Source: a virus
IMG/VR virus record: IMGVR_UViG_3300028453_000003
Strand: one strand, 5' to 3'
DNA: 58,801 nt
How positions within the stretch are numbered: the stretch's first letter is position 1; each line of letters opens with the position of its first letter. The notes below the pieces were generated by a model. It was not told the origin of the DNA. It saw only the letters and a program-made list of their open reading frames with translations, and ran no database searches. Below, piece after piece: positions 28,826-57,673 of this stretch. The translations under genes and the position numbers were made by a program.

Positions 28826-30172
28826 TCACCTATTCTGATACCTTTGTTGCTCTCTTGTGATATTCCTAACATCGTGGTTTACATTCGTGGAAGAGGATGG
28901 GTTCTTCACAATACTTGTTCTGCCATTCCTATCCAAATCCTCTTGACCCTTTTTCACAATCGGCTTATGCAAACTATTAGGGTCAGTTTCACCATCCAAT
29001 AATTGGTCTTCCTCATAATCATCCATTTCAAATTCAAGATGACATTCACCTTTGATGTTCTGCAACTCAAGTTCCTTATCAAAGAGTTTCTTAATATACT
29101 TTGCAACCCAATCCCGATTATACTCCAAGAACAAGACCCTACCAGTAGTCTTACTATCCAATTGAATATCGGCAGTAGCCCTATTTGAAGATTCAGAACT
29201 GAATACTGCCTCTGGAGTATTCAAAGCAATGTAAACTTCTTTTTCAAAGTATTTAATGTAATCTTGAATTTGTGGCAAACTACCCCCCTTAAGGAGTTCA
29301 ACTTCAATACCATAAGGCAATATCAAACAACCTTTCATATGGTAATTATTAACCACTTCTGCAACTTCATCTCTTGCATCTTCATCCAAGTAAGTGTTCA
29401 TCTTGTTTTCATTTCCCATTGTAACTGATATAATGTTACTGTTCTTATATACAGTCAATGGCATCTGCTCTCTTAACACTCTCTTGTAGTAGATTGGTTC
29501 TAATGCACCACCAATCAAGGCATTGGCTTTACCATCTCTCTCTAAATATTTCATATGTTGGATTTCATCAAGTTCATAACTGATTTCCATTTCAGTCAAA
29601 TCCTCTTCCAACTCATCAAACTTCTTACGAAGCCAACCCTTATTAGTTCTTGCATTTTTCTGAATCACTTGCTTGTAACCACAAACATCACCATTCTCAT
29701 CAAAGATAACCTTGATACGATAATCAACACCATCATAAGCCAAGAATGTAGGCTTGATATGGTTCTCAACTATACGAAAATGTTGGAACACATCACCATC
29801 CACGAAACCTTTCCAAAGGATATTATCAATAATGTTATCCAAATCCCATATTTCAACCATATCTTCCAAATGCTTAACTGCCTTATCATTATCACCAGTA
29901 ATATACCACTTGGTATTGGTCTTTGTCATCAAATCCATCAAGATACCTTGTGCTTGACTATCGTGAACACTTGCAAATCGGCGATTCTTAACAGTATTAC
30001 GAACCCTTGATGGAGTAGCCTCATACAAATCAACCTTATCACATTTACGATAGTGGTCTTTCCTATCATCAAGACCAACTTCATAAACCTCATTAGGATG
30101 ACTATTCAACAATACCTTACTTGCTTTCGCAATCCTTTCATAAATTCCTATAACTCTCACCTCCTCCATCAT
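28826..30172 (-). CDS. Portal protein
   Basis: 448 aa, immediately downstream of TerL with a 1-nt overlap. Confidence 0.7.
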   Translation of the reverse strand: MMEEVRVIGIYERIAKASKVLLNSHPNEVYEVGLDDRKDHYRKCDKVDLYEATPSRVRNTVKNRRFASVHDSQAQGILMDLMTKTNTKWYITGDNDKAVKHLEDMVEIWDLDNIIDNILWKGFVDGDVFQHFRIVENHIKPTFLAYDGVDYRIKVIFDENGDVCGYKQVIQKNARTNKGWLRKKFDELEEDLTEMEISYELDEIQHMKYLERDGKANALIGGALEPIYYKRVLREQMPLTVYKNSNIISVTMGNENKMNTYLDEDARDEVAEVVNNYHMKGCLILPYGIEVELLKGGSLPQIQDYIKYFEKEVYIALNTPEAVFSSESSNRATADIQLDSKTTGRVLFLEYNRDWVAKYIKKLFDKELELQNIKGECHLEFEMDDYEEDQLLDGETDPNSLHKPIVKKGQEDLDRNGRTSIVKNPSSSTNVNHDVRNITREQQRYQNR

Positions 30173-31392
30173 CAGTAACTGTAAATCCTCACACTATCTT
30201 TATACTGCCTATCGGCACTTAATATGCCTACTGTTCCATAAATACCATAACCAAGAGCATCCATACTATGGTCATCGTGTTTAATCGGCTTATCTATATC
30301 ATTACCCTCTTTATCCTTTTGATAACAATAAGATTCAATCTCACGAATTGTATTGGTGCATCGCTCTGCAATATGCAAAGTGCAAGATTTAACTGCCTCA
30401 ATCTTCGCATCAACATTCTTAATACCACCAATCGCATTGAAACCATAATCACAGAACTCTTGTATACGATCTGGCTCTGCACTATCGCAGTATACTGTAT
30501 CAACTTGATTAGGATTGAGATTGTATTTCCTTAACAGTTTAATGCACTCTGCAATGAACTGATGGTTAATAAGGTTTCTTTCATAGACTTCATCAATGAC
30601 ATAACACTCACCATCAAGCCAACCTAAAAGCAAGAAACAACTTGGATTATTGAAACCAAAGTCGCAACAACCAGTATAATACTCAAAACCTTTTGAGGAC
30701 TCTTTAATATCCCAATGTTGATATATTAAGCCACCACTATCTTGCCAAAGCCCTAAAGTGAGCCTAACATAGTTATCCCAGTCAAATTTCTTCCTTTCCT
30801 CTGCCATCTTGATATACTCTTCACCAACAAAACTATTATCAGTATAATGAAAATGGATAATCTCAATCTTCGGATCATCACGATGCAAATGAAACCTCTT
30901 ATAAATCCAATGAGCCTTTGTAGATGGAGTAATCACAAGTAAAAGTTGCCCATAATCTTTCATACTGGCTTTACCCCTTACCCTTGACTCCAACTCATTA
31001 AAAACATCTTTAGAAATCTCCTCTGCTTGTTCCACATACACAAAATCAAGGTTTAAACTCCTAATCTTCTGAGGGTCATCTAAACCCTTAAAGGAGATAG
31101 TACTCCCATTTAGGAATGTGATAACACCTTCTGACTTGTTTTCCTTATAAGGTATCTGATAATTGTCCAATGCTTCCCTAATTTCTAACCATGAAGTCAT
31201 TCTCAAACTTGGTAAGGTTTGCCTAAACACAGCCACACGAGCATTTTTATGAGTTAAAGCGTACAGAATTGTCTTGTGTATCGCATAGAGAGTCTTGCCA
31301 GAACCCGCCGCTCCTTCTACGAGCAGATATTTGTGTTTATCGTTAATGTACTTCGCTTGTTTCTCTGTTAACTTCCATTCGATGGTTGGCAT
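30172..31392 (-). CDS. terL: Terminase large subunit
   Basis: Walker A VEGAAGSGKT, Walker B LDFVYVEQAEE, and a C-terminal nuclease region with DHSMDALGYG. Confidence 0.9.
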   Translation of the reverse strand: MPTIEWKLTEKQAKYINDKHKYLLVEGAAGSGKTLYAIHKTILYALTHKNARVAVFRQTLPSLRMTSWLEIREALDNYQIPYKENKSEGVITFLNGSTISFKGLDDPQKIRSLNLDFVYVEQAEEISKDVFNELESRVRGKASMKDYGQLLLVITPSTKAHWIYKRFHLHRDDPKIEIIHFHYTDNSFVGEEYIKMAEERKKFDWDNYVRLTLGLWQDSGGLIYQHWDIKESSKGFEYYTGCCDFGFNNPSCFLLLGWLDGECYVIDEVYERNLINHQFIAECIKLLRKYNLNPNQVDTVYCDSAEPDRIQEFCDYGFNAIGGIKNVDAKIEAVKSCTLHIAERCTNTIREIESYCYQKDKEGNDIDKPIKHDDHSMDALGYGIYGTVGILSADRQYKDSVRIYSY

Positions 31393-32774: not shown

Positions 32775-33059
32775 TCATTTATGTCCTTTAATCATCAACT
32801 TCCTATTCGGAATGTTATGCCTATATGACTTATGCCTTGTCTTAATCTTACTATATCGGATATGCACTCCTCTCCTTGCCTCTGATGGAGCAGAGAATGG
32901 GATCACATTATCCACCTTTTCCAAGCCACAGTATTGTACTGCACTTGACAAGACCAAACCACACTTGTTGCAATAGGTTTCCTCACGAACATAATCCCTT
33001 ACAAACTCTGTATTATTGCATATAGGACAACATTTGGTTTCCTTTTCGGTAAAAATCAT
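32775..33059 (-). CDS. TFIIB/TFB-type Zn-ribbon protein lacking cyclin domains
   Basis: CCPICNNTEFVRDYVREETYCNKCGLVL matches the TFB N-terminal ribbon pattern CPxCG..(x)..D...GE.VC..CGLV. It is followed by only 50 basic residues. Confidence 0.7.
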   Translation of the reverse strand: MIFTEKETKCCPICNNTEFVRDYVREETYCNKCGLVLSSAVQYCGLEKVDNVIPFSAPSEARRGVHIRYSKIKTRHKSYRHNIPNRKLMIKGHK

Positions 33060-33976: not shown

Positions 33977-34312
33977 ATTCTATTCTTATATATCTTAAAA
34001 AATTGTAGTATATTGTCTTAATATACTATACTGTACAGATAATAGTTAAATGTCTTATCATTACTTTTCATTATTATGTTATTGTCTTTTTGTCCGTGTT
34101 GATCCCTCAATAATTTTTTCTTATTAATTTCCTTATTGTTTTTTTTGTTTTTTGAGTTGTGTATTAATTTAGTATTTTTTTATTTTATTTTGTTGTGTTG
34201 TTGTGTGTTTAATTGTTTTTTTGTTGTTAATATAACAATTGTTATAAAATAGGTTTAAAAAAAAGAGAAAAAATAAACTTTTATATTTGATCTATTAAAT
34301 GAGATAATTTAT

Positions 34313-34627
34313 TTAATTTCCAAAAATTGAAATAATATCTTTTTGAATGTCATAAAATGTTTTTTGGGTTAAACCATAACATTTAATTTTATATTGGGTT
34401 TCGTTTTCGATGTCGTCGATTTTTATGATAATTTCTAAATCATTATAATAAATGTTTATTAATTTAAAGTTTCTATGGTTTCCCATATCCTCTTTTATTT
34501 GATTTAATCCAATTTGAGAGGCTAACCATTTTAAATGATTGTAAGCCTCTTTTATATTGATTCTTTCAAATGATTCGTATTTATATTTGGTTATTGGTTC
34601 AATTTCAATAATTTTTATGTATACCAT
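34313..34627 (-). CDS. AT-rich cassette protein 1, unknown function
   Basis: ATG at 34627 follows the conserved leader ttgagagttgaaaaaa. The track's MKK prefix is a TTG artefact. A T-rich terminator lies downstream. Confidence 0.6.
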   Translation of the reverse strand: MVYIKIIEIEPITKYKYESFERINIKEAYNHLKWLASQIGLNQIKEDMGNHRNFKLINIYYNDLEIIIKIDDIENETQYKIKCYGLTQKTFYDIQKDIISIFGN

Positions 34628-34680
34628 TTTTTTCAACTCTCAATAGTTTTTTAGTTTAAGTGCCTTTTTAAATTGTAACA
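34628..34680 (-). promoter_or_regulatory. Conserved promoter-leader module, copy 1
   Basis: Minus sense reads tgttacaatttaaaaaggcacttaaactaaaaaactattgagagttgaaaaaaATG. Confidence 0.6.
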
Positions 34681-34731
34681 TTTGAAAAAGACAAAAGAAA
34701 AAATAATAAGAATTTTAAAGTAATAATTACT

Positions 34732-34950
34732 TTAAAAATCTTTTAGTAAATTGTTTATGTTTTCATTACAAAAGTATTTTAATTGATCCTTATCATATTT
34801 TAATATTTTTGTAAAATCTGTATTTTTATTTAATTGAAAAAGAATTATTATTATATCTCTAATTTTATTTTGTGTATTGTTATTATCTAATAGGAATAAG
34901 TTTAATAAAATTCTTAATTCAATTAGATTTATTAATAATTCTTTTTTCAT
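34732..34950 (-). CDS. AT-rich cassette protein 2b, unknown function
   Basis: 72 aa, with its ATG overlapping the upstream TGA (ATGA). Confidence 0.5.
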   Translation of the reverse strand: MKKELLINLIELRILLNLFLLDNNNTQNKIRDIIIILFQLNKNTDFTKILKYDKDQLKYFCNENINNLLKDF

Positions 34951-35723
34951 ATTAACACAACATTATTTTTATATTGTAATGTTTTAAGGTAGTTTTCTAT
35001 ACTGTCCTCAAAATCATATAATAAAATAGTTTTGTTGTTATATTCAACATATGGATCAACATAATTATAAACCTCAGTATTTTCATAACATTCATAATTT
35101 AAATTGAAAATTAAATCATTACATTTATTATCATTTTGTATTATGATATTATCAAATAAGAATGATAATTCATTACATTCATATTTTTCAATAGGTTTAT
35201 TTATCCAATAGTTATAATCATTTGATAAAAAAGATATAAATCCATCATAAGAACTATTTTTTTTATGAATATAGTTTTCCATATTTTCAAAAGATAATAC
35301 ATAATTTTTTATTAGATTTAATGTTGTATAATTAGTTTTTAGGAATAATCCATTTTTATCAGTTCTGTAATTGTAATACTTAGGACTGTCTATATAACTG
35401 TCTTTTAATTCTAATAAAAATTGAGGATTTTCTATAATATCATTAGGTAGTAAATCTTTTATTAATTTTAAATATAAATTGCTAAATTCTTTTGATATAT
35501 CATTTTTATAATTTTCAAAATTTTCAAAATTATAATTAACTTCAATATCATTTTCATTTAAAAAAGAATATTTATCTAACAATATATTTTTGTCCTCAAC
35601 TTCATAATCAATAAATTGATCAGAATTACAAAACATACTTTCATAAAATCCATAAAAAACATTTATATATAGTTCTTTTGTTATGTTTTCATTTTCTTTA
35701 TTTTCAAAATTATATTTATTCAT
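34947..35723 (-). CDS. AT-rich cassette protein 2a, acidic N/Y/D/E-rich, unknown function
   Basis: ATG at 35723 follows the conserved leader. 258 aa. Confidence 0.6.
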   Translation of the reverse strand: MNKYNFENKENENITKELYINVFYGFYESMFCNSDQFIDYEVEDKNILLDKYSFLNENDIEVNYNFENFENYKNDISKEFSNLYLKLIKDLLPNDIIENPQFLLELKDSYIDSPKYYNYRTDKNGLFLKTNYTTLNLIKNYVLSFENMENYIHKKNSSYDGFISFLSNDYNYWINKPIEKYECNELSFLFDNIIIQNDNKCNDLIFNLNYECYENTEVYNYVDPYVEYNNKTILLYDFEDSIENYLKTLQYKNNVVLI

Positions 35724-35780
35724 TTTTTTCAACTCTCAAAATTTTTATAGTAAAAAGTGCCTTTTAAGTCTTTAACAACT
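35724..35780 (-). promoter_or_regulatory. Conserved promoter-leader module, copy 2
   Basis: Minus sense reads gttgttaaagacttaaaaggcactttttactataaaaattttgagagttgaaaaaaATG. Confidence 0.6.
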
Positions 35781-35928
35781 AAAAAAGACAAAAGAAAAAA
35801 TAAAAAATAATTAGAATAAAAATTCTAATTCAAATAATTTAAAAATAACTTTACAAATGAAAAAATAAAAAATAAAAAATAAAATTAATGTTGTATTATT
35901 GCTTATCATTTTTTCAAAATCCTTTTTT

Positions 35929-36327
35929 TTATTCAAATGTTAATTGATATTTATTTGAGGATAAGACAAAAACATTATTAAATTGTAAATTGCTTTTGTT
36001 TTCATAATTTTTCTTTAATTCTTTTTCTATAAATCTATAAAAATTAAAGAATTGTTTTTCATTTAGATAAATATCAATACCATATAATGACTTATCAAAA
36101 TACTCTTTATTTATTATGTATTGATCTTTTGAATAAATTGTTAAATCTAATCGTAATCTATAAAAATCAAAATGTAAAGTAAACCTTTTAAATTTAGGAT
36201 TTTCAAAAATTGCTTTTATTTGATTTTCATTACATTTTAAAGGATTTTCTAATTCATAAGAATATACATAATTTTCTTTATTTTTGCTTATGTTTTCAAT
36301 ACATAACTTTTTTAATTGTGTTTTCAT
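35929..36327 (-). CDS. AT-rich cassette protein 3, unknown function
   Basis: ATG at 36327 follows the conserved leader. Confidence 0.6.
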   Translation of the reverse strand: MKTQLKKLCIENISKNKENYVYSYELENPLKCNENQIKAIFENPKFKRFTLHFDFYRLRLDLTIYSKDQYIINKEYFDKSLYGIDIYLNEKQFFNFYRFIEKELKKNYENKSNLQFNNVFVLSSNKYQLTFE

Positions 36328-36378
36328 TTTTTCCAACTCTCAATAGCTTTTAATTTAAGTGCCTTATTGATCTGTAAA
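36328..36378 (-). promoter_or_regulatory. Conserved promoter-leader module, copy 3
   Basis: Minus sense reads tttacagatcaataaggcacttaaattaaaagctattgagagttggaaaaaATG. Confidence 0.6.
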
Positions 36379-36508
36379 AATCTAAATAAGACAAAAGAAA
36401 AAAAGATAAAAACAATTAAATTTTAATTGCTTTATCTATATAAAATAAAATTAGTTTATTGTTTTAGGTAGTAACCTTTAATTTAATTAAAGTTTTACAA
36501 TGAATACT

Positions 36509-37057
36509 TTATTTTTTGAATAAATTGTAAATATCATTTGTACTATTGAAAATATAATTTTCCATAAGTTTATCTAATGAAAATTTAGTATTTATCATAT
36601 ACCATGATAAACCTAAATGATCTATACATAAAATATATAAATCGTCTTTAGAATTATAAAGTATATCATAATTGCAATAATCCTTAAATAAACATAAATC
36701 ATTTTCATTAATAATAAAGTATTGAAAATATTCTTTATAAGTTAAACTTATAAAATCATAATAATGATTGTGTAACATTAAATTTAAATCGTCCTCAGAT
36801 AATTCATTTAAATCAGTATTTTCAAAATCATAAATATAAGAACTGTAATTCTCAAAAAATTCAATTATAGTTTCATTATCATAATTTTGTATAAATTCAT
36901 AACTTAAATTATCAATATTTGAATTTTGTAAATCATAAGGTATTAAATTTATATCAAAATAATCGATAAAATTGCCTAAACTTAATACATTTTCTTTTAG
37001 TTCGTCTTTACTTATTTTCATTATTTTAGTTTTTAAGTAATATTTTTCATTTTCCAT
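36509..37057 (-). CDS. AT-rich cassette protein 4, strongly acidic, unknown function
   Basis: ATG at 37057 follows the conserved leader. The protein is D/E/N/Y-rich with no Arg. Confidence 0.6.
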   Translation of the reverse strand: MENEKYYLKTKIMKISKDELKENVLSLGNFIDYFDINLIPYDLQNSNIDNLSYEFIQNYDNETIIEFFENYSSYIYDFENTDLNELSEDDLNLMLHNHYYDFISLTYKEYFQYFIINENDLCLFKDYCNYDILYNSKDDLYILCIDHLGLSWYMINTKFSLDKLMENYIFNSTNDIYNLFKK

Positions 37058-37111
37058 TTTTTCAACTCTCAAAAGGTTTATAATAAAAAAGTGCTTTATT
37101 TGTCTGTAACA
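37058..37111 (-). promoter_or_regulatory. Conserved promoter-leader module, copy 4
   Basis: Minus sense reads gttacagacaaataaagcacttttttattataaaccttttgagagttgaaaaaATG. Confidence 0.6.
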
Positions 37112-37282
37112 ACATAATAAAACATATGAATAATAATATATGTTTAAAAAATTGAGAATTGAGAGTAAAAAAGAAAATTTTATAATTTTTTAGTTACTAT
37201 AGACAACAATTTATAAAAATTGGATTAGATCCACAATACTATAAAAATTATTAAAAATTTTTGTATTGTGTGCCTTTTTATT

Positions 37283-37302
37283 CGATTAATAATTATTAAT
37301 CG
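37283..37302. promoter_or_regulatory. 20-bp perfect palindrome
   Basis: cgattaataattattaatcg, immediately next to a TATA+GGCAC-like motif (37268-37284, minus sense). Confidence 0.5.
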
Positions 37303-37508
37303 TTACATATAGTATATATGAACTAATATATAAATATTTCTATTTTTATTTTGAATTTACAACAGCTAAAAAATTTTAGGATCAACATATAAAAAATACT
37401 TAACATAGTTAAGTTAATTGTTTTTGTATTGTGTGTGCCTATTAGTAAAAAAAGGTAGTGGATCAATTTCATATAATCATTAATCCTTTTTCAGTTCAGC
37501 TCAAAATA

Positions 37509-37646
37509 AAAAAAGTTTGTACCCAGGCCCTACCCCAAGCCGACCCCCACAGTTTTGGCAGAGCAGAGTACCCAAACCCTACCCACCAGTAAAAAAAAAA
37601 AAAGTTTGTACCCAAACCCTACCAATTATATGTGTGTACCCTTGCT
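37509..37646. repeat. G+C-rich island with three copies of GTACCCARRCCCTACC, two of them followed by A runs
   Basis: Copies at 37519-37535, 37568-37584 and 37608-37623. Four C-tracts lie within 37522-37548 (a G4 motif on the minus strand). A13 run at 37591-37603. Confidence 0.8.
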
Positions 37647-37782
37647 TAAAACTATAAGGATGATGATAATACTCTTGCTTTAAAATAATAATTAATGGTA
37701 AAAGTAGTAGTTTAATTAATCAGTAATGCAATATAATGAAAGCAGTTAATAAAAAAAGTAAATATAGGTAACTTGATATAGG

Positions 37783-38124
37783 CTACCTAATTATAAATTG
37801 TGGTTTTTCTATGATTAGGCAGTCGAGTCCCCCCCATTCTTGTTTGACATATGCTCTGCCGATGGGGTTTTCTTTTCTACCATGAGGCATTATTTTTTTG
37901 GTTATGATGTCGCCATCAGTTAGTATGTTTATTGTGATGACTCCATCTTCTTGTCGGTGGGATTCTATCCATCTGTCTGTTACTGTTAATGGGACTGGGA
38001 TTATTAATGCTTTTTTCCCTATCCATTCTCTTTTTGTGTATATGATTGGGTTTCCTCCCATATATTTGACTCTTCGGAATTCGTATTTCTCGAATTTGAG
38101 TTTTAATGTTATTTCATTTTGCAT
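37783..38124 (-). CDS. Small DNA-binding protein candidate (AbrB/DUF2080-like)
   Basis: The ATG at 38124 (MQNEITLK) is preceded by agagagtatgataaa. TKREWIGKKALIIPVP resembles the DUF2080/AbrB-type strand motif. The upstream part of the track ORF is a repeat array. Confidence 0.4.
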   Translation of the reverse strand: MQNEITLKLKFEKYEFRRVKYMGGNPIIYTKREWIGKKALIIPVPLTVTDRWIESHRQEDGVITINILTDGDIITKKIMPHGRKENPIGRAYVKQEWGGLDCLIIEKPQFIIR

Positions 38125-39933: not shown

Positions 39934-40140
39934 TTATTCATTATGTAACTCTCCCATTCTTTTGAAAATTTGGTAGCGAAATTTTTCGCAATTGTTTAGT
40001 TCTTTTTGTAATTTTCTAATAGTGTCTTGTTGTTTCATAAGTATGTCTACAAGTTCTTGTAAATTGTATTCCTTGCCAGTTTCATCACGAACACAATTAA
40101 TCACATCACCATAAAAAATGACTTCAAATTGCTCACTCAT
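39934..40140 (-). CDS. MSE-start / QQ(A/D)TI coiled-coil family member
   Basis: MSEQFEV..., LMKQQDTIRKLQKEL. Confidence 0.5.
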   Translation of the reverse strand: MSEQFEVIFYGDVINCVRDETGKEYNLQELVDILMKQQDTIRKLQKELNNCEKFRYQIFKRMGELHNE

Positions 40141-40146
40141 TGTTAA

Positions 40147-40371
40147 TCACTCCTTATCATTTATCAGACTAACAAGTTCTACAAGAACATTGATTATGTC
40201 TTGTTGTGTGTCTATGATGTGGTCTTGCATTTTGACTTTCCGATTGTATTTTCGTATGTCATTGTGCAAGTCAATTATAACTTGGTTGAGTCTTTTATCT
40301 TCATTTTCCAGTTCATTTATCTTTTCACTCATTTTTATGATTTGTTCTTTTTCATCGTTTTTATTTGTCAT
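40147..40371 (-). CDS. Coiled-coil small protein
   Basis: 74 aa, heptad-rich. Confidence 0.45.
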   Translation of the reverse strand: MTNKNDEKEQIIKMSEKINELENEDKRLNQVIIDLHNDIRKYNRKVKMQDHIIDTQQDIINVLVELVSLINDKE

Positions 40372-40511
40372 TTTTCATCTTCCTTATTCATTTCCATCAT
40401 CTTATCCAATGCTATTGTAAATCTCTTCAACACTATGCTTGTCCATACAGAGTCAATGAATATTCCAATAAATATGCCTAAAAGTAAAATTACCCAGTTA
40501 AATAATGTCAT
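40368..40511 (-). CDS. Small membrane protein (47 aa)
   Basis: agggtg RBS. Translation starts MTLFNWVILLLGIFIGIFIDSVW... The stop overlaps the next ATG (ATGA). Confidence 0.45.
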   Translation of the reverse strand: MTLFNWVILLLGIFIGIFIDSVWTSIVLKRFTIALDKMMEMNKEDEK

Positions 40512-40514
40512 TCT

Positions 40515-41069
40515 TCACACCCTTTGTTGTTTGAGTTCCTTAATCTCTTGTCTTAATTTTGCATTTTCACTATCACTTTGCCCACAAAGGTCTTGTAATT
40601 CTATTATCTGTTTTAATTGCTCTTCACCAATTTTTGCATATTTTTTTAGTTTCCTTTCCAACTCTTGTATTGTGTCTTGTTGCTCTAATATCTTCGCTTT
40701 CAACTTGTCGGTACATTCTTCAAACTCTTCCAATGCCTTGATTTTATCGCCCAAGAAATCGGCACATTGTTGGTCAAGTTCTGCAATCTCCTTGTCTTTC
40801 GCTTCGATGGTGGCTTGTTGCTCACCAATCTCTCTTTTGAGTTTTGCAATTTCTTTTGATTTTTCACAATTACTTTCTTCAATTTCTTTGAGCATAACTG
40901 CATAATTATGTGTACACTCATCAAACCAGTTCAGATAATTACAAATCTTATTTACTGCTTCCCTTTCTTCTGCAAGAAAACTATACATCTTCATTCGCTT
41001 ATAATCAATCAAAAGAATAATCTTATCTGTATTCACATCTTCTTGCACTACAAATCGTTTCTCACTCAT
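40515..41069 (-). CDS. MSEKRF / EQQATI coiled-coil family member (long form)
   Basis: MSEKRFVV..., REIGEQQATIEAK, ILEQQDTIQEL, ENAKLRQEIKELK. Confidence 0.55.
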   Translation of the reverse strand: MSEKRFVVQEDVNTDKIILLIDYKRMKMYSFLAEEREAVNKICNYLNWFDECTHNYAVMLKEIEESNCEKSKEIAKLKREIGEQQATIEAKDKEIAELDQQCADFLGDKIKALEEFEECTDKLKAKILEQQDTIQELERKLKKYAKIGEEQLKQIIELQDLCGQSDSENAKLRQEIKELKQQRV

Positions 41070-41389
41070 TTTTCACACCAATTTTCCTTACAATCATAAC
41101 AACAAGTATTGCAGATTGTTTTCAATTCTTGTCGCAACTTCTCATTCTCTTCCTTTAATTGCTTTACTTTTGCACTCCATTTTTCAGATTGTCTTATTTG
41201 CCATTTGAAATCATCTGTTGCCTTATTCAAGAAATCACACAATTTCAAGGCAACTTCCTTATTTCTACATTCAAAACAATCTTCTACTCTTTTAGTATTT
41301 ACTACTGCCCACCAATATTCTCCTTTCCAATCGTTCTCTTCATTCAATATTTCAAGTTCGTTTACAACAAATTGTTTATCATTCATCAT
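41066..41389 (-). CDS. Family-related small protein (NDKQFVV start, ENEKLRQEL zipper)
   Basis: MMNDKQFVV..., KQLKEENEKLRQELK. Confidence 0.5.
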   Translation of the reverse strand: MMNDKQFVVNELEILNEENDWKGEYWWAVVNTKRVEDCFECRNKEVALKLCDFLNKATDDFKWQIRQSEKWSAKVKQLKEENEKLRQELKTICNTCCYDCKENWCEK

Positions 41390-41696
41390 CACAACCCCTT
41401 ACAAATCGCTCTATTTCTTTAATGTCTTTTTCCTTGAATATTTTATCCAATTTATCCATATCCTCACCAATATGACTGGAGTATTCGTGAATAACTGTTG
41501 CTTCAGATTGATATAGTAAATCTAATAAAAGGTTGATGGTGGCTTGTTGCTCATTCAACTTATCAACAACATTCTTCCAATTTTCACATAAATCAATATT
41601 GCTCCGAATATTTGAAATGACACACTTCTCTTCTTGTCTGTCATATAATCCCTCATCACCACATACACTTGTTAAGTAATATCGTTTCTCACCCAT
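41379..41696 (-). CDS. MGEKRY / LNEQQATI family member
   Basis: MGEKRYYL..., VDKLNEQQATINLL. Confidence 0.55.
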   Translation of the reverse strand: MGEKRYYLTSVCGDEGLYDRQEEKCVISNIRSNIDLCENWKNVVDKLNEQQATINLLLDLLYQSEATVIHEYSSHIGEDMDKLDKIFKEKDIKEIERFVRGCDDE

Positions 41697-41703
41697 ACAT
41701 CAA

Positions 41704-42096
41704 TCACCATTCTAAACTGATTATAATCTTTTTCTTCGGTTCTCCCATTACAGTTCCTAATTCCACTTTAACATTTTTTAAATTAAAATCTTCTTTTATT
41801 TTTTCCAACTGATTTAAATCAAATTTTTCAGTAATTATCTTGCAGGTTAGATAAGGGTTATCCTCTAACTTTATTTTAGCAAAACCATCAACATATTTTT
41901 CCAGTTTTTCTTTTAAATATTCAATTGCTTTATGTTTATCCCCTTGAATGTTCTTTAATTCTTTTTCTAATTTTATTTCCTCTTTATGTAACTCTTTCAA
42001 ATCCTCAAAGGAATACTCCTTTATCTCCTTTTTATGACACACTGTTTTTGAATAAGGAACTCCGAAAGGGTCAGTATCATCATTCATATAAGACAT
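41704..42096 (-). CDS. Hypothetical protein
   Basis: ATG at 42096 follows ggagggattataat. The track start at 42150 is upstream. Confidence 0.5.
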   Translation of the reverse strand: MSYMNDDTDPFGVPYSKTVCHKKEIKEYSFEDLKELHKEEIKLEKELKNIQGDKHKAIEYLKEKLEKYVDGFAKIKLEDNPYLTCKIITEKFDLNQLEKIKEDFNLKNVKVELGTVMGEPKKKIIISLEW

Positions 42097-42097
42097 A

Positions 42098-42355
42098 TTA
42101 TAATCCCTCCTTATCATCCAAATTATCCTTAATATATTTGAAATGACCATTAACTGCTAATGCAATTGAATTAAAATCCTCATCATAGATTCCTAACTTT
42201 ATAATGTTTTCATCATGTATGAACATATCATCACCATTATGGAAATGTATATGCCATAATTTGTATATTTGACTATAACAGAAATTTTTAATGGCACAAT
42301 GTCCAAGAATTTTGAAAGATTTTGTCTCCAATACCATACACAAATCACTCATCAT
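42098..42355 (-). CDS. Hypothetical protein
   Basis: The ATGATGAGTGAT start context overlaps the upstream gene's end. Confidence 0.45.
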   Translation of the reverse strand: MMSDLCMVLETKSFKILGHCAIKNFCYSQIYKLWHIHFHNGDDMFIHDENIIKLGIYDEDFNSIALAVNGHFKYIKDNLDDKEGL

Positions 42356-42725
42356 CAAACAACTCCTTCATATCGTCTCTTATTTTGAAGTCAGCACATT
42401 CGCCAACTTCTTCAAATTCATAAATTCCTCCCTTGCTTTTATGTCCTTTCAAGCAGCACATATCATATTCATAAACACCTTCCGTATAACAAAAATGAGA
42501 AGTGTAATTAGCATGTTCGCAGAGTTCACATAATTCCACATGATAAAAATTACTCAAGATCATTATCAGATTTTCATTTTTAACATATAACTCATTCAAC
42601 AAATTAACAGCAGTTTCAAATATTCCCTCATCCTCAATAGGGTATGCGTCCCCAGTCTCTGCATCAACTATTGAATAAGGCACTATTTCAGTATCAAGAT
42701 AAAATTTAACAAATGGTTCACTCAT
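42345..42725 (-). CDS. Cys-rich hypothetical protein
   Basis: ATG at 42725 lies 6 nt after aaggtga. Contains CELCEH...CC..GH. Confidence 0.5.
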   Translation of the reverse strand: MSEPFVKFYLDTEIVPYSIVDAETGDAYPIEDEGIFETAVNLLNELYVKNENLIMILSNFYHVELCELCEHANYTSHFCYTEGVYEYDMCCLKGHKSKGGIYEFEEVGECADFKIRDDMKELFDDE

Positions 42726-42727
42726 AC

Positions 42728-43060
42728 TCAATCACCTTTAGAATATAATATAACAGTTCCCTTTCGTATATCTTGAAACATTACTGGTTTAAAATTATCC
42801 AATTCTTTTCGCAACTGTTCATTATCTTTTTTGAGTTCTGCAATGATTGTTTGAAATCTTTTATCTGCTTGATGTTTTTCAATCGTAAGATATTGGATGG
42901 TGGCTTGTTGCTCATTCAACAAATAGACAATTTCCCTAATCATTTCATTATCATTATCAAAATCACCAGTCAGAAGGTATTCTATCTTATCTGTCTGCAC
43001 AAAGATATTATGAAATCTCCCTATCTTTTCAGATTTGACAATAAATCGTTTCTCACTCAT
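42728..43060 (-). CDS. MSEKRF / LNEQQATI family member
   Basis: MSEKRFIV..., YLLNEQQATIQYL, KKDNEQLRKELDN. Confidence 0.55.
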   Translation of the reverse strand: MSEKRFIVKSEKIGRFHNIFVQTDKIEYLLTGDFDNDNEMIREIVYLLNEQQATIQYLTIEKHQADKRFQTIIAELKKDNEQLRKELDNFKPVMFQDIRKGTVILYSKGD

Positions 43061-43304
43061 TCTCTAACTCCTTTCGTATTATTTCAACTTGTTCATCAGT
43101 TAAGAATTTTAAACAATGCTTTTTGATTATGCTTATCTGCTCTTCTCTTTTATGTACTCTTCTTTGATACATTTCAATAGTGGCCTGTTGCTCATTTAAC
43201 TTATGTTCCACATCATTCACATCTAATATTTCATCGGTTTTAGAGTCATAAATTCCTCCCCATTTATCTACAATTCTTGTTTTCTGAAATCGCTTCTCAC
43301 TCAT
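43053..43304 (-). CDS. MSEKRF / LNEQQATI family member
   Basis: MSEKRFQK..., HKLNEQQATIEMY. Confidence 0.55.
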   Translation of the reverse strand: MSEKRFQKTRIVDKWGGIYDSKTDEILDVNDVEHKLNEQQATIEMYQRRVHKREEQISIIKKHCLKFLTDEQVEIIRKELENE

Positions 43305-43307
43305 CAA

Positions 43308-43421
43308 TTAGCCCCTTTGAAATCTTTTCATATTCTCTTCATATTCCCTACCAATTTTGTTGAAACTTTGCCGAATAAACTCCCAAAACCACTCTTGAAA
43401 ATCAAATCGTTTCTCATTCAT
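43308..43421 (-). CDS. MNEKRF family mini-protein (37 aa)
   Basis: ATGAATGAGAAACGATTTGATTTT start, with ATGA overlap to the upstream stop. Confidence 0.4.
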   Translation of the reverse strand: MNEKRFDFQEWFWEFIRQSFNKIGREYEENMKRFQRG

Positions 43422-43594
43422 ACTATCTCTCCATTTTCGTTCCTATACTCTTCATCAGGTTTCTTGATTTCAATTATAATCTCATCATTACCATTGCAGT
43501 GCAAAAGATTAATATCATAATAATTCCCTTGCAAATCCTTAATAATTATATCACAAACATTCCTAACTGGAAAATCAAATCGTTTCTCACTCAT
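43418..43594 (-). CDS. MSEKRF family mini-protein (58 aa)
   Basis: ATGAGTGAGAAACGATTTGATTTT start, with ATGA overlaps at both ends. Confidence 0.45.
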   Translation of the reverse strand: MSEKRFDFPVRNVCDIIIKDLQGNYYDINLLHCNGNDEIIIEIKKPDEEYRNENGEIV

Positions 43595-43794
43595 TTAAAT
43601 CCCTCTTTTTCTGCAAATTCGTGTTGTCGCAAAATCATCTCATATTCTGCAACTTGCTTTCGTAACTGCTCATTCTCTTCATAGAGTTCATTCAACAAAT
43701 CTACAACTTCACTCTCATTTAAATCTGTATCTTTATCCATTATATGATATTGTAATACTGTTTCAGAAGATAACTTAAATTGTTTCTCAATCAT
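43591..43794 (-). CDS. MIEKQF family member with NEQLRK zipper
   Basis: MIEKQFKL..., EENEQLRKQVAEYE. Confidence 0.5.
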   Translation of the reverse strand: MIEKQFKLSSETVLQYHIMDKDTDLNESEVVDLLNELYEENEQLRKQVAEYEMILRQHEFAEKEGFK

Positions 43795-44134
43795 CTATCC
43801 ACAACTCTTTTATTAATTCATTATTCTCTTTTTTCCACGCTTCATTTTCCTTTCGCAACTGCTCATTCTTTTTATACAAATGTAAAACATCTTGTTCTTT
43901 ATCTTTATTAATTTCTTTCAATTCCTTATTTTCTTTTTTAAGTTTATTATGAATCCTTTTAAACTCGATATTTAACTCCTTTAGTTCTAACAGTCTATCT
44001 ACGGTTGCCTTATGATTATTTTTAAGAATTTCATCTTCTTTTTCATCCTGACAATAACCTAATCTTTTGTTATTTTCATAAAATAATCCATCTTCAACAC
44101 CAAATAAGTTGTTATAATACCACCAATCAACCAT
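43787..44134 (-). CDS. Coiled-coil protein with NEQLRKENEAWKKEN zipper
   Basis: gaggtgg RBS, 115 aa. Confidence 0.5.
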   Translation of the reverse strand: MVDWWYYNNLFGVEDGLFYENNKRLGYCQDEKEDEILKNNHKATVDRLLELKELNIEFKRIHNKLKKENKELKEINKDKEQDVLHLYKKNEQLRKENEAWKKENNELIKELWIDD

Positions 44135-44461
44135 TATACCACCTCATATATTATTCATATCTCAATTCATCTTCTTTAATATTAATCAAGTTCCTTCCAA
44201 TATTTGAATCAATTCCACACCACATATTTGTCATACATCATCACCCTTATATGTAAATAATTCACTCATCATATCACATCATATAATTTTAATAAAATCC
44301 ACAAGCACATTAACCATATCGCTTGAAGTTCAATCCACATTGCAAGTTCACTCATCATCAATCACCATAATGTTCGGACATTTACAATTCCAATACCATA
44401 TAATACAACTATATACAATTGCTAATAAAACAAATTTCTCACTCATCACCTTATGCTCTCC

Positions 44462-45236: not shown

Positions 45237-45971
45237 TCATTCAATATCTGCAAAGTATTGGTGGCATTTCACAAGTCTATTCTGATTTACTGTTATCAAC
45301 TGCCAACTTGGTGGCTCTAATTGTAAGTATTGTTGGTCTGGGTAACCATCATAACCTAAAAAATGCCCACAATACCCATAAAATATTTGCTTATAACCAG
45401 TAGGAAACCTTTTAAACTCCGACCACCAAATATTTTTATGATTATGACCCTCAAGGTACATATCTGCAACAATATGTTCAGTATTTCTCTCCAATTTCCC
45501 CATAGCCAATGGTTTGGTCTTTGATGAACCTTTACCATGTCTACAAAAAATACTAAAGTCAAAATCATTAATAGAAAATGTATCTAAATTCTGATTGCAA
45601 TAAGTAATCCCCAATTCTCTACACATATCTTTAACAATATTGAAACCAAATTCCTTGTTTAAACGATATTCGTGATTACCAATACAATAACAAACAATAT
45701 CCTCTTTAAATGGTTTGATATTATTAATAAAATATTCTCTCTGCTCTTCAACAGTACAATCTTGCCCATAAGCACTATCCCCAACATTCTTACTTGCAAC
45801 TTCCAACATATCACCAAGCAAATAGATTCGGCGATTTTTAAGAGGTTTTATAGTTTTAAGCATTTGCTTAAACAAATCCTTATTAAAAGTAGGATTCCCT
45901 ATATGCAAATCTGAAATAGGAATGATATTCACTACTGTTTTTGAGTTCAAAGCATATTGATCCAACACCAT
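45237..45971 (-). CDS. Calcineurin-like metallophosphoesterase
   Basis: Motifs DLHIGN, GDMLE, GNHEY, RHGKG and GHNH in canonical order. Confidence 0.8.
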   Translation of the reverse strand: MVLDQYALNSKTVVNIIPISDLHIGNPTFNKDLFKQMLKTIKPLKNRRIYLLGDMLEVASKNVGDSAYGQDCTVEEQREYFINNIKPFKEDIVCYCIGNHEYRLNKEFGFNIVKDMCRELGITYCNQNLDTFSINDFDFSIFCRHGKGSSKTKPLAMGKLERNTEHIVADMYLEGHNHKNIWWSEFKRFPTGYKQIFYGYCGHFLGYDGYPDQQYLQLEPPSWQLITVNQNRLVKCHQYFADIE

Positions 45972-46615
45972 TATATATCACCATCTAATTTTTTCCATTC
46001 AAATCCTTGTTTTTTAACTTCTTTTTCTAAATCTTCTAAATTAACCCTTGAAATATGTTTATGGTAAATTTTCCCATTATTATCTCTTAAGTTAATAACA
46101 TATCTCCAAAGGAATCCTTGTTTGCAACTATTACATTTAACTGTTGAAACTCTATAATATCCAGTAGTGTTCGTGGAATTATGTTTATTTGTACAAGATT
46201 TAGTCATCTTTATCTTATCTTCTATGCTCCAAATTTTTCCAAAATTAGGATGCTTTTCACCACTCATAGCATTACTTATTTTGTCTTTCGCTTCTTTAGA
46301 ATGGTGTTTCCCATACATTGGATGAAGTTCCCCACATCTCCCATAACAATGATGCTCTTTTCCATATTTTGCATCATTTTTTCTATGAAATTTATCGTGG
46401 ACATCTTTTGGAACACATTGTAAATTTTGGATTCGGTTGTCTGTTTTATTGTAATTAATATGGTGAATTACACAATTTTTTGGAATTGGTTTTCCATAAT
46501 GTTCTTCCCATATCAAACGATGTAATAACTGGTTATTATTCCCTTGCTTTTGTGAACTAATTTTATAATACCCATAATTATTCAATGTAGCATTTCCATA
46601 TTTCGTTTCAATCAA
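45971..46615 (-). CDS. HNH homing endonuclease with NUMOD-like repeats
   Basis: HHINYNKTDNRIQNLQCVPKDVHDKFH, plus GKEHHCYG..GKHHSKEAKDKIS..GEKHPNFG. Paralog of 46938-47441. Confidence 0.75.
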   Translation of the reverse strand: MIETKYGNATLNNYGYYKISSQKQGNNNQLLHRLIWEEHYGKPIPKNCVIHHINYNKTDNRIQNLQCVPKDVHDKFHRKNDAKYGKEHHCYGRCGELHPMYGKHHSKEAKDKISNAMSGEKHPNFGKIWSIEDKIKMTKSCTNKHNSTNTTGYYRVSTVKCNSCKQGFLWRYVINLRDNNGKIYHKHISRVNLEDLEKEVKKQGFEWKKLDGDI

Positions 46616-46621
46616 TCTTAT

Positions 46622-46954
46622 TCACCTTTTCTTTTTGTTTATTCCTAATCTTCGTAGTTCGCCTCTGATTTGTCTTAATTCATCATCAAAGTTTTCTTTT
46701 CTTTTTTCGGTTATGTATCCAGTTCCATTTTCTTTTGGTTTTATCCATTTGGTTCTTTTCCATTCGTTTTTTTGGTCTTGCAATGCTTTGGCACTACAAT
46801 CTTTAGTACAATATACTTGCCGATGATGTGTTTTTGCAAAATATTGTCCACAAAATTTACATTTGCAAATTATACTGGCACGATTAAAATGGAAAACACA
46901 ATTGGGTGGTGCATTTTCTTTTATTTTCTTTATATCTTTATAAATTATCTTCAA
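46622..46954 (-). CDS. Basic zinc-finger protein
   Basis: CKCKFCGQ...YCTKDC. Confidence 0.45.
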   Translation of the reverse strand: MKIIYKDIKKIKENAPPNCVFHFNRASIICKCKFCGQYFAKTHHRQVYCTKDCSAKALQDQKNEWKRTKWIKPKENGTGYITEKRKENFDDELRQIRGELRRLGINKKKR

Positions 46955-47441
46955 ATTTATACCACCTTAATCCTTTTTCTCTAACTGCTTTTTCTAATTC
47001 AACAATATTAGTTCTTGAAATAGTTTTCCTATTCCCATCTGCATTAGTATATTCATATCTAAATATGAAACCTTGTTTGCATTTGGAACATTTATTTTTA
47101 TAAACATTGAAAAAACCAACTGTATTCTTGGATTTACTCATTTTAAAACAAGAACTCATCTGATGTTTATTTCCTTTTTTATGTAATTTCAAATGCTCTT
47201 CCTTTTTTAAAAGAGATAAATTACAAATGCAATTATTGACCCTATTTTTATCGTTATGATGAATTTGATAACCTTTGGGGATTTTACCATAATACTTTTC
47301 AAATAATAATCTATGGAAATATTGATGATGGTTACCCTCTTTTCTACTTGTAATTCGATAATACCCATTATCATCTAATTTAGCATTTCCCCATTGGGTA
47401 TGAATTGTATTATTTGGTTTTATTTTTAATTTATACATCAT
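46938..47441 (-). CDS. HNH homing endonuclease (paralog of 45971-46615)
   Basis: QIHHNDKNRVNNCICNLSLLKKEEHLKLH. Both the N- and C-terminal regions align with the neighbouring HNH gene. Confidence 0.7.
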   Translation of the reverse strand: MMYKLKIKPNNTIHTQWGNAKLDDNGYYRITSRKEGNHHQYFHRLLFEKYYGKIPKGYQIHHNDKNRVNNCICNLSLLKKEEHLKLHKKGNKHQMSSCFKMSKSKNTVGFFNVYKNKCSKCKQGFIFRYEYTNADGNRKTISRTNIVELEKAVREKGLRWYKFEDNL

Positions 47442-52451: not shown

Positions 52452-52892
52452 TCACCTCACACTAAATCTTTTCATATATTCTGCAAAATCGTAAGCATTT
52501 GCATTAGCAACCCCAAAAAGAGAATGGTATTTATTATGACAATATTTACACAATGTAATACCATTACTTAATTCCACTCTTAAAGAGGGATAATTTTCAT
52601 ACCCATAGATATGATGAGCAACTAAATGTTTATCTTTTGGAAAACCACAACATTGACAAACTTTATCCCTTTCCTTAACATCAGAAACCCATTGTTGATA
52701 AATGGGAGAATTTCTTGTTACTGAACGACCATCTATTTCATCATAATCTGCTTTCTTGATTTCTTCTATTGTTTCATATTCATTAATAAGAAATTCTTCT
52801 CTGATTTTAAGATGTTTTTCTCTTTTCTTTAATTCTTGCATCTTCCTTGAAATTTCTAAATTAGGATTATTTCTATAAAAAATGGATTCCAT
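52452..52892 (-). CDS. HNH endonuclease
   Basis: CQCCGF...HLVAHHI...NGITLCKYCHNKYH. Confidence 0.75.
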   Translation of the reverse strand: MESIFYRNNPNLEISRKMQELKKREKHLKIREEFLINEYETIEEIKKADYDEIDGRSVTRNSPIYQQWVSDVKERDKVCQCCGFPKDKHLVAHHIYGYENYPSLRVELSNGITLCKYCHNKYHSLFGVANANAYDFAEYMKRFSVR

Positions 52893-53085: not shown

Positions 53086-53334
53086 TTATTTCACCTCTAC
53101 TCTAACGAAATAAATCAAGTATGAATCCCTTAAATCATACAATACTCTTTCAACATCCATCTTCGGAAACCTACTGAAAATAGTCCTTGCTTGAACTGGA
53201 GAGTTCTTTTTGATATGAGTATAAATATACTTGTCATCTCTGCCAAGCAACTTAACACTCATTTGATTGACTCCCTCTGTTTCAACAACAAGAGTTATGG
53301 TTTCCCAAGAATCTACTTTACCATCAACTATCAT
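53086..53334 (-). CDS. Winged-helix protein candidate
   Basis: The ATG at 53334 overlaps the helicase TGA (ATGA). Confidence 0.35.
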   Translation of the reverse strand: MIVDGKVDSWETITLVVETEGVNQMSVKLLGRDDKYIYTHIKKNSPVQARTIFSRFPKMDVERVLYDLRDSYLIYFVRVEVK

Positions 53335-55205: not shown

Positions 55206-55253
55206 CACTTAACACCTTATTTTTAATTTAAACATAAAACTACACCTAAATAT

Positions 55254-57643: not shown

Positions 57644-57673
57644 GAATGTTGATGTTATAATTCTTCAACATTC
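57644..57673. terminator. Hairpin between convergent genes
   Basis: gaatgttga/tcaacattc stem (57644-57652/57665-57673). The loop contains the int stop codon. Confidence 0.4.

Follow-up and report, generated by a model that had tools for sequence, protein, structure and literature searches.

Do the short motifs shared by a cluster of small viral genes mark a protein family, or are they elements of the DNA itself? The question is raised by a 58,801-nucleotide (nt) stretch of viral DNA (IMG/VR record IMGVR_UViG_3300028453_000003; the whole stretch is hereafter called the window), in which positions 39934-44134 hold an array of small genes on the minus strand. An earlier note, made from the sequence alone, had described about 11 tandem genes that share up to three signatures: an MSEKRF-type N terminus, a central LNEQQATI box, and a C-terminal ENEQLRKEL motif resembling a leucine zipper. 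It saw in them a diversifying set of coiled-coil proteins that could interact with the host. Our follow-up partly supports that interpretation. The signatures are real, and all three are nucleotide boxes conserved at synonymous sites, beyond their character as peptide motifs. In comparisons with other viruses they coincide with the junctions of apparently exchanged mosaic segments. We consider it probable that recombination has shuffled the array into its present form: a multigene family of small zipper proteins in tailed viruses, whose hosts are probably Methanobacteriales of rumen and gut.

A six-frame regular-expression scan confirmed the signatures at 39934-44134 on the minus strand and found them nowhere else in the window than at 39.9-44.1 kb. 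The N-terminal pattern M[SGNI]EK[RQ][FY] occurs at seven open reading frame (ORF) starts (41069, 41696, 43060, 43304, 43421, 43594, and 43794), and [EK]QQ[AD]TI occurs at six sites (40018, 40668, 40806, 41535, 42896, and 43176). Zipper boxes of the type NE[QK]LR[KQ][EQ] were recovered at four sites (41126, 42803, 43654, and 43847); a further copy, at 40536, is only a weak match (ENAKLRQE). The ORFs are 37-184 amino acids (aa) long, as had been described, overlap their neighbors by 4 or 8 nt, and have Shine-Dalgarno (SD)-like GGTG or GGAG sequences upstream. Public gene calls agree with them (ENA ERZ27247008, k141_93266, 58,815 bp, of which the window is essentially the complete contig), the products being 115, 67, 58, 37, 83, 110, 126, 85, 137, 105, 107, 184, 47, 74, and 68 aa long. 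With up to three mismatches allowed, ATGAGTGAGAAACGATTT was observed in eight copies against 0.12 expected from dinucleotide shuffles, and AATGAGCAACAAGCCACCATC and AATGAGCAGTTGCGAAAGGAA in four copies each against an expectation of 0. A repeat finder independently returned the same three boxes as direct-repeat families D1-D6.

Resemblance of this kind could in principle be a matter of chance or composition among coiled coils rich in Lys, Glu, and Leu. Pairwise BLASTP scores among the paralogues were no higher than 31 bits, and many sub-threshold matches to unrelated coiled-coil Pfam families were obtained. Because the pairwise scores were weak, a hidden Markov model (HMM) of the family was built from 35 metagenomic homologues, with no window sequence among them, and was run over the complete set of 892 six-frame ORFs from the window. 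Hits at E<0.01 numbered seven, all inside the array, as were two borderline ORFs, 43418-43594 (E=0.086) and 43787-44134 (E=0.15). The tape-measure protein and the other coiled-coil ORFs of the window did not score; 40147-40371 and 41704-42150 are unspecific coiled coils. Outside the window the family comprises 160 unnamed homologues at 90% clustering. Among 1.84 billion representatives, 666 clusters at 50% identity matched at E<=1e-3 and 116 at E<=1e-10. Homologues of identical architecture number in the hundreds. The box counts against shuffles and the independent HMM refute the chance explanation, to which we give next to no probability. The similarity is therefore significant when formally scored, and a local expansion of coiled-coil proteins is supported. 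Instead of about 11 genes, the array is better counted as seven solid members plus two borderline ones; another two or three ORFs have nothing but the start motif in common with them.

Codon counts showed that the signatures are more than the peptide motifs they had been taken for, because synonymous sites are conserved as well, and with codons that are otherwise rare. The exact N-terminal leader, ATG AGT GAG AAA CGA TTT, is identical in three window genes and has one to three mismatches in five more. Across the window and five independent loci, its fifth codon is CGA in 29 of 35 copies, whereas the rest of these genes use CGA for 28 of 167 Arg codons (Fisher p=9e-14); genome-wide, CGA makes up 7% of Arg codons. 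Lys-4 is encoded by AAA in 37 of 39 copies and Phe-6 by TTT in 33 of 33. Residue 2 is chemically unconstrained (Ser, Thr, Asn, Ile, or Gly), and its codon always has the form A/G-N-T (AGT, ACT, AAT, ATT, or GGT). The central box, LNEQQ[AS][TI]I (B box; 36 unique copies), has Ala as GCC in 23 of 26 cases (background 9%) and Ser as TCC in six of ten, and the Arg of the zipper box (Z box) is CGA in eight of nine copies across loci. From the codon 2 pattern and the GCC/TCC pattern it follows that the nucleotides persist even at positions where the residue can change. The leader 18-mer has sharp limits of conservation; upstream of it just the SD sequence is conserved.

Three candidate explanations of the leader were rejected. 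Avoidance of A-runs would account for CGA after AAA, but of 152 internal AAA-Arg pairs, only 22 have CGA. No plus-strand match to the leader, as an antisense copy would give, was found, and the window contains no tRNA genes and hence no virus-encoded tRNA for CGA.

A plainer account of the identity is that the genes are ordinary tandem-duplicated paralogues, whose motifs are kept for the needs of the protein, whose DNA identity reflects recent duplication, and whose boxes have no role of their own. The paralogues are indeed tandem and co-oriented, the invariant Asn-80, Leu-83, and Leu-87 suit the needs of a zipper, and mosaicism at gene boundaries is common across all phages. The codon data fit this account poorly: the amino acid varies while the nucleotides stay, both at codon 2 (A-N-T) and at the Ala/Ser position of the B box (GCC/TCC), and the rare codons persist across loci whose gene sequences are otherwise unalignable. 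Also at odds with it are a leader that heads unrelated proteins, chimeras that meet exactly at boxes, and 99% identical patches in otherwise dissimilar contigs (all described below). We regard simple duplication as quite unlikely to be the whole explanation.

The MSEKRF start had been read as a signature of the family. It is instead a separable 18-nt cassette, ATGANTGARAAACGATTT, and not a property of the zipper family. This sequence has 120 exact matches in IMG/VR on ~65 contigs, of which 116 open an ORF of 25 codons or more and 108 have an SD sequence upstream; among the metagenome matches listed, the identifier series of the multi-copy contigs recur among the rumen loci that we fetched. Most cassette-headed ORFs have the family architecture, with the leader followed by variable strands and a ..VDLLNEL.EENEQLK... 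segment. The same cassette also heads a protein with a PAPS-reductase domain from residue 7 onward (PF01507, 29.4 bits versus a cut-off of 22.5), HNH-like, Zn-ribbon-like, and membrane ORFs, and two ORFs of the window, one of 58 aa (43418-43594) and one of 37 aa (43308-43421). Its second residue follows the ANT/GGT codon pattern.

In the ATGANTGA part of the cassette, each of the two alternative frames meets a TGA, one at nt 2-4 and the other at nt 6-8. We compared 226 unique leader-type starts. The ORF before the cassette stops at nt 2-4 in 77 of them and at nt 6-8 in another 52 (57% together). In 61 its stop precedes the cassette by 0-10 nt and in 24 by 11-90 nt, and 12, contig edges included, showed no upstream stop. 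This split roughly matches that of an arbitrary upstream frame, with the cassette closing whichever one arrives. Family proteins frequently end in -DE, -NE, or -DD because GAT GAG TGA is the cassette in another frame. In the window, ATGANTGA begins 10 of the 29 candidate starts in the array, compared with one of 29 in the replication module and none of 57 in the structural module.

Two other functions of the leader were considered. By analogy with the capsid-targeting sequence that otherwise unrelated internal proteins of T4-like phages have in common, it might be a peptide tag for a common partner, serving capsid targeting, secretion, or degradation, so that the array would be a set of tagged effectors. 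Its confinement to one genome region and its presence on non-homologous proteins (zipper, 58-aa non-zipper, Zn-ribbon-like, HNH-like, and PAPS-reductase) would suit a tag, whereas a free choice of residue 2, replacement of Arg-5 by Gln as often as by a synonymous Arg codon, and the fixation of all synonymous sites but one are not what a peptide signal would require; we judge the tag rather improbable. Alternatively, the cassette might be an RNA operator through which a translational repressor or endoribonuclease, of the virus or the host, switches the whole array, as with RegA/RegB of T4 on early mRNAs. The nucleotide constraint covers just the start codon and the next 15 nt, with none past the 18-mer, and the leader is restricted to array genes, 10-19 of which carry it per genome in relatives. 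Against an operator, no candidate regulator was identified and neither a conserved secondary structure nor conserved flanking sequence was seen; moreover, its expected pattern is indistinguishable from homology maintained for recombination. An operator is decidedly unlikely in our view. Both functions are compatible with a recombination-shuffled family.

Natural chimeras of the window paralogues, joined exactly at a box, are found among the homologues. One homologue (P0002) combines the N-terminal half of 43053-43304 with the C-terminal half of 42728-43060, the join lying at LNEQQA-I. Three others (P0050, P0073, and P0091) match residues 1-90 of 41066-41392 at ~91% and then pass into a DNFKPVMFQD tail, joined at LKEEN..LRKEL. 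P0064 and P0115 have an N-terminal part as in 43591-43794 and differ in their tails, and P0011 is a further protein chimera with its break at a box. At the nucleotide level, a gene in L014 and L015 aligns with window positions 43308-43177 and then 42919-42710, and the 23-nt overlap of the two alignments is the LNEQQATI box. The chimeras and the alternative tails support the suggestion of the earlier note that modules are gained and lost.

The same junctions appear between viruses. A single replacement, of 3.9 kb by 133 bp, sets apart two 99% identical rumen contigs of about 163-164 kb (L010 and L011); it has an ENEQLRQ box at its right junction and a gene start at its left. Window positions 41070-40837 are 99.1% identical over 234 nt to L010 13476-13709; these are the first 234 nt of 40515-41069, and the similarity stops ~10 nt ahead of the GEQQATI box. 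A second patch, window 44167-43914 against L010 14016-14269 (254 nt, 94.5% identical), overlaps the 43787-44134 gene. Such patches in a 58.8-kb virus and a ~164-kb contig that are otherwise dissimilar indicate that different viruses traded pieces of genes very recently. When all fetched loci were pooled, blastn high-scoring segment pairs (HSPs) had 48 unique endpoints, and 26 of these lie within 10 nt of a box versus 19.8% expected (binomial p=1.3e-7), a test that shows that boxes bound shared segments rather than by what mechanism, since HSPs extend through conserved boxes by construction.

The proteins match no described family, as the earlier note had supposed: searches of Pfam, PHROGs, NCBIfam, PADLOC, and PDB sequences, and Foldseek searches of PDB and BFVD, were negative or sub-threshold. 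The Pfam, PHROGs, NCBIfam, and PADLOC scans returned only sub-threshold coiled-coil noise: the best PHROG matches (E from 2e-4 to 7e-4) were to families of unknown function or to tape-measure coiled coils, NCBIfam matches fell far under the cut-offs, and PADLOC matches (E>=8e-4) covered coiled-coil parts only. INPHARED phages gave no match to 39-46 kb in a nucleotide search or to the prototype protein (42728-43060) by tblastn. A literature search with the motif strings returned no papers, and the MSTV1 paper speaks of no more than a "hypervariable region" with small genes and does not describe the zipper family.

The AlphaFold2 (AF2) monomer model of 42728-43060 (mean predicted local distance difference test score 83) has a three-stranded β-meander at residues 7-32 (strands 7-13, 16-22, and 27-32); residues 38-88 form one unbroken helix, and a β-hairpin follows at 92-107. 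Both the B box and the Z box fall within this long helix, and chimeras presumably survive because a crossover in these boxes stays in frame and in heptad register. Foldseek of the model found nothing in PDB or BFVD at E<=1e-3. A ribbon-helix-helix repressor, with the leader as its strand, had been considered on account of the basic N-terminal strand. It would have one such strand directly before two helices and was rejected because the model has three strands followed by one long helix, and there were no ribbon-helix-helix matches in Pfam.

In the zipper box, Asn-80, Leu-83, and Leu-87 are invariant in 36 sequences, and Leu-76 is conserved upstream. Asn thus occupies the a position of the heptad and Leu the d position, in a core that is probably like that of GCN4, with Gln-52 of the B box as a probable second polar layer. 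Leu at d, Asn at a, and a continuous helix at 38-88 were all found in sequence and model, the oligomeric state being a prediction. The likeness to GCN4 and other bZIP proteins extends to a single buried Asn among the core residues (L76, N80, L83, and L87) and to the flanking of the core by Glu at g and Arg at e. Pfam bZIP_1 was the commonest weak match (nine of 36 members, best E=4e-6, zipper part only). Unlike bZIP proteins, window proteins reach only 14.3-16.9 bits against gathering cut-offs of 27.6 (PF00170) and 22.3 (PF07716), and they have no basic DNA-binding region before the zipper. The position is taken instead by the β-meander and the LNEQQ helix: ahead of the Z box stands QQATIQYLTIEKHQADKRFQTIIAELKK, itself after the β-meander, and no basic-region motif. 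A PDB profile search gave weak matches only, to GpsB (E=0.005), YabA, and the Max zipper. The GpsB chains matched at E=0.005-0.008 over profile positions 27-75, short of any safe threshold, and GpsB/DivIVA proteins likewise have a "..EV.D.L....EN..L"-type motif running into a coiled coil. Their N-terminal part differs, DivIVA (PF05103) was absent from the listed Pfam matches, and DivIC was weak. Heterodimerization of array proteins, which the earlier note had raised, is physically plausible from the sequences of the zippers.

The array members, the boxes, and the main genes around them are listed in Table 1. The L001 segment 13173-13359 is homologous to 41379-41696 from the B box through the gene end. 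43308-43421 is called as a gene in L110-L112, and orthologues of 43418-43594 are present in L081 and L085. BLASTP gave 40% identity over 48 aa between 42345-42725 and 43591-43794, not significant by HMM, and 42345-42725 is a possible distant relative of the family. Residues ~95-115 of 43787-44134 form three successive heptads that begin with Asn (NEQLRKE, NEAWKKE, and NNELIKE); so many polar a positions are unusual for a zipper, and the protein may depend on a matching partner. Cys-rich tails (CNTCCYDCKENWC; CELCEH...CCLKGH) follow the family-type N-terminal halves of 41066-41392 and 42345-42725, and at other loci similar Cys-rich modules stand directly after the leader (MSEKRCCDCEH...). Zn-knuckle modules seem to be part of the shuffled repertoire.

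Table 1. Members and boxes of the small-gene array and other features of the window
Feature	Coordinates	Strand	Remarks
68-aa member	39934-40140	-	start ATGAGTGAGCAATTT (MSEQF), KQQDTI box; HMM E=1e-4
184-aa member	40515-41069	-	exact leader 18-mer, two B boxes (GEQQATI, LEQQDTI), weak zipper ENAKLRQE; HMM E=6e-3
106-108-aa member	41066-41392	-	leader variant ATGAATGATAAACAATTT (MNDKQF), ENEKLRQEL zipper box, Cys-rich tail; HMM E=5e-12
105-aa member	41379-41696	-	leader variant MGEKRY, exact B box; HMM E=9e-5
126-aa gene	42345-42725	-	ATGAGTGA start (MSEPF), LLNELYVKNENL helix, Cys-rich C-terminal half
110-aa prototype	42728-43060	-	leader, β-meander, LNEQQATI, DNEQLRKEL, C-terminal DNFKPVMFQD...ILYSKGD β-hairpin; HMM E=1e-35
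83-aa member	43053-43304	-	leader and LNEQQATI box; HMM E=2e-7
37-aa ORF	43308-43421	-	leader alone in common (MNEKRF); HMM E=2.4
58-aa ORF	43418-43594	-	exact leader, no zipper; HMM E=0.086
67-aa member	43591-43794	-	leader variant ATGATTGAGAAACAATTT (MIEKQF), LLNELYEENEQLRKQ; HMM E=1e-7
115-aa coiled coil	43787-44134	-	no leader; KNEQLRKEN box, then two more Asn-first heptads; HMM E=0.15
32-aa hydrophobic ORF	44348-44446	-	starts ATGAGTGAGAAATTT (MSEKF), leader variant
Leader/start cassette ATGAGTGAGAAACGATTT	43043-43060	-	exact copies also at 41052-41069, 43577-43594
Leader variants	41369-41386, 41679-41696, 43287-43304, 43404-43421, 43777-43794	-	
B box AATGAGCAACAAGCCACCATC (NEQQATI)	42896-42916	-	more copies at 41535-41555, 40806-40826, 43176-43196
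Diverged B boxes	40668-40688, 40018-40038	-	
Z box AATGAGCAGTTGCGAAAGGAA (NEQLRKE)	43847-43867	-	more copies at 42803-42823, 41126-41146, 43654-43674
Integrase	57655-58746	-	
625-aa P-loop replication protein	53331-55208	-	
Three free-standing HNH endonucleases	45971-46615, 46938-47441, 52452-52892	-	one with NUMOD3 domain
Mre11-like metallophosphatase	45237-45971	-	"DNA repair exonuclease"
94-aa TFIIB-type zinc-ribbon ORF	32775-33059	-	PF08271, 32.2 bits, above cut-off of 29; just upstream of terminase genes
Large terminase subunit	30172-31392	-	followed by head, tail, and lysis genes

The window belongs to a tailed virus with all genes on the minus strand. The replication module also encodes a primase-type Zn-ribbon protein, an ERCC4-type nuclease, an N6/N4 methyltransferase, and a dCTP deaminase. 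The HNH genes adjoin the ERCC4-type nuclease and the Mre11-like metallophosphatase and are candidate drivers of local gene conversion and mosaicism. The array lies in a block of small genes from ~45.2 to 38.8 kb. Its placement in an "early region" was an assumption of the earlier note; the array sits between the replication module and the packaging module.

Between the array and the packaging module, 34000-38000 is an extremely AT-rich island (GC content 0.18-0.22 versus ~0.35 elsewhere). Its ORFs correspond to public same-strand gene calls and gave no Pfam or PADLOC match; the island could be a recently acquired moron or lysogenic-conversion block. At the far end of the late operon, in the position expected of a lysis enzyme, 264-989 on the minus strand encodes a C39-like cysteine peptidase (PF03412, 25.7 bits); comparison with the pseudomurein endoisopeptidase of vir249 revealed no meaningful similarity.

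The nearest annotated relative is Caudoviricetes sp. vir249 (recorded host Methanobacteriales, human gut), with identities of 44% in the large terminase subunit (TerL) and 40% over 521 aa in the replication protein. The TFIIB-type zinc-ribbon ORF is an archaeal-type transcription feature and may be a viral regulator of late transcription. A related 196-kb carrier of the family (L007, IMGVR_UViG_3300028048_000047) has 17-18 MTEKRF-type genes in 20 kb. Its other genes include a full TFIIB/TFB homologue at 16804-17526 (PF00382, E=2e-33) and an RNase T-like exonuclease. Because of the vir249 identities, the zinc-ribbon ORF, and the TFB homologue in L007, the host is likely, on this indirect evidence, to be a member of the Methanobacteriales, methanogens of rumen and gut.

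Further carriers were sought in IMG/VR with a single protein, which found no locus, and by an alignment-based search, which found three loci in IMG/VR and one in GTDB genomes. Copies were counted with the same family HMM at E<0.01. The 58.8-kb window gave six hits (seven when searched alone). Segments of 20 kb gave eight in L001, eight in L005, 18 in L007, and 19 in L010; shorter ones gave two in L006 (10.1 kb), two in L008 (10.8 kb), and three in L013 (10.3 kb). There were none in 50 kb of vir249. Copy number in related viruses thus ranges from 0 to 19 per 20 kb, and vir249 has none despite its common replication and packaging genes. The family is undescribed and niche-restricted.

How would such a family be built and kept? 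A full member has five parts: the 18-nt start cassette ATGANTGARAAACGATTT (M-[STNI]-E-K-R-F), a variable three-stranded β module, the helix-entry box (V)VDLLNEQQATI, the leucine-zipper box (E)ENEQLRKEL, which places Asn at a and Leu at d of the heptad, and an optional C-terminal module, which may be a β-hairpin tail, a Cys-rich knuckle, or nothing. New genes would arise by unequal crossing-over of tandem paralogues and by exchange between co-infecting viruses, with the boxes as the homology. The boxes would allow in-frame, in-register crossovers inside a continuous helix that tolerates splicing. The start cassette would shut any upstream frame and restart translation, so that cassettes could be combined regardless of frame, and would couple the translation of any new pair of neighbors. 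The products are predicted to be parallel homo- or heterodimers formed through the shared polar-core box. Our best guess at their biological role, from sequence, is that of dimeric zipper adaptors with Asn at a and shuffled end modules. The dimers may present paired variable modules to host or viral targets in takeover or counter-defense; target binding of this kind is the least supported step and a guess, drawn from genome position, small size, rapid turnover, and analogy to other viral paralogue expansions.

A stronger proposal is that the boxes are recombination signals maintained for that purpose, perhaps nicked or processed by the virus's own nucleases, which would make the array a cassette-shuffling system. 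The three HNH endonucleases, the ERCC4-type nuclease, and the Mre11-like exonuclease just upstream might nick the boxes, the array would continually make new combinations of zipper-protein modules, and the cassette would act as a frame-independent stop-restart joint, possibly also a common operator, through which every combination is expressed. We regard this proposal as unlikely.

Several points weigh against the shuffled-family explanation itself. Repeated horizontal spread of the boxes, rather than selection on nucleotides, could be the source of the identity at synonymous sites. Recombination is deduced from sequence comparison and was not seen as an event. Junctions could also come to lie at points that the structure tolerates simply because working chimeras are selected. 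The dual-stop idea does not account for the AAACGATTT half of the leader. The dimer model derives from a monomer structure prediction for which Foldseek finds no analogue, and no functional annotation exists anywhere in the array, which makes a host-interaction role a guess. The host assignment is indirect (TerL 44%, replication protein 40%, TFIIB zinc ribbon), and a related contig (L008, CADAMI010000001.1, 61.9 kb) is binned in an Erysipelotrichaceae rumen metagenome-assembled genome (RUG13428). This contig carries family members, NrdD, and a distant homologue of the viral replication ATPase (23% over 184 aa). Its length is roughly that of an entire virus, and mis-binning of a viral contig into a bacterial genome is the probable explanation.

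Known systems offer partial parallels to a shuffled family of this kind. The internal-protein loci of T4-like phages reportedly have a conserved N-terminal capsid-targeting sequence. Their leader, too, is kept at the DNA level, and crossovers at these conserved 5' ends have been suggested. As there, we see a hyperplastic cluster of small, unrelated or fast-diverging genes with one short N-terminal leader, a gene content that differs between close relatives, and a leader common to otherwise unrelated proteins of a variable locus. The array differs in its dual-TGA stop-start leader with an unconstrained residue 2, in two further internal boxes that would permit sub-genic shuffling, and in a probably archaeal host; capsid targeting and protease processing belong to the T4 side, whereas the array leader is known from sequence only. 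Modular phage evolution, in lambdoid phages among others, is said to proceed via short conserved "linker" sequences. Linkers and boxes alike are short conserved nucleotide stretches at the edges of segments exchanged between dissimilar genomes, but two of the array boxes are intragenic, lie in one continuous helix, and yield protein chimeras, and within a single genome the same three boxes recur 4-19 times. The AcrID1 anti-CRISPR family of rudiviruses is reportedly an expanded set of small dimeric proteins. It resembles the array in having several small-protein paralogues per viral genome, in a variable region, with copy number differing among relatives; it has no sequence or fold similarity to the array family, and we know of no description of box-mediated mosaicism in it. 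Unlike shufflons and diversity-generating retroelements, the array has its box copies all as direct repeats on one strand and not as inverted sites, no reverse transcriptase was found among the ORFs scanned, and the sole recombinase found was the integrase.

The array is thus a mosaic viral multigene family with linker-type boxes, unusual in that the boxes are sub-genic and the start cassette carries a dual stop. Viruses of gut and rumen methanogens are barely characterized, and annotation turns their variable regions into rows of hypothetical genes; in some such viruses this undescribed family accounts for up to ~19 genes per 20 kb. Its hallmark motifs are DNA elements that would mark the crossover points of active mosaic exchange, and the boxes and leader are practical markers for such viruses in metagenomes. 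If the boxes prove to be true recombination signals, they would constitute a means of generating diversity in an archaeal virus without a reverse transcriptase or invertase. If they are maintained for recombination, the array would provide a simple, testable model for how viruses may build combinatorial repertoires of small binding proteins.

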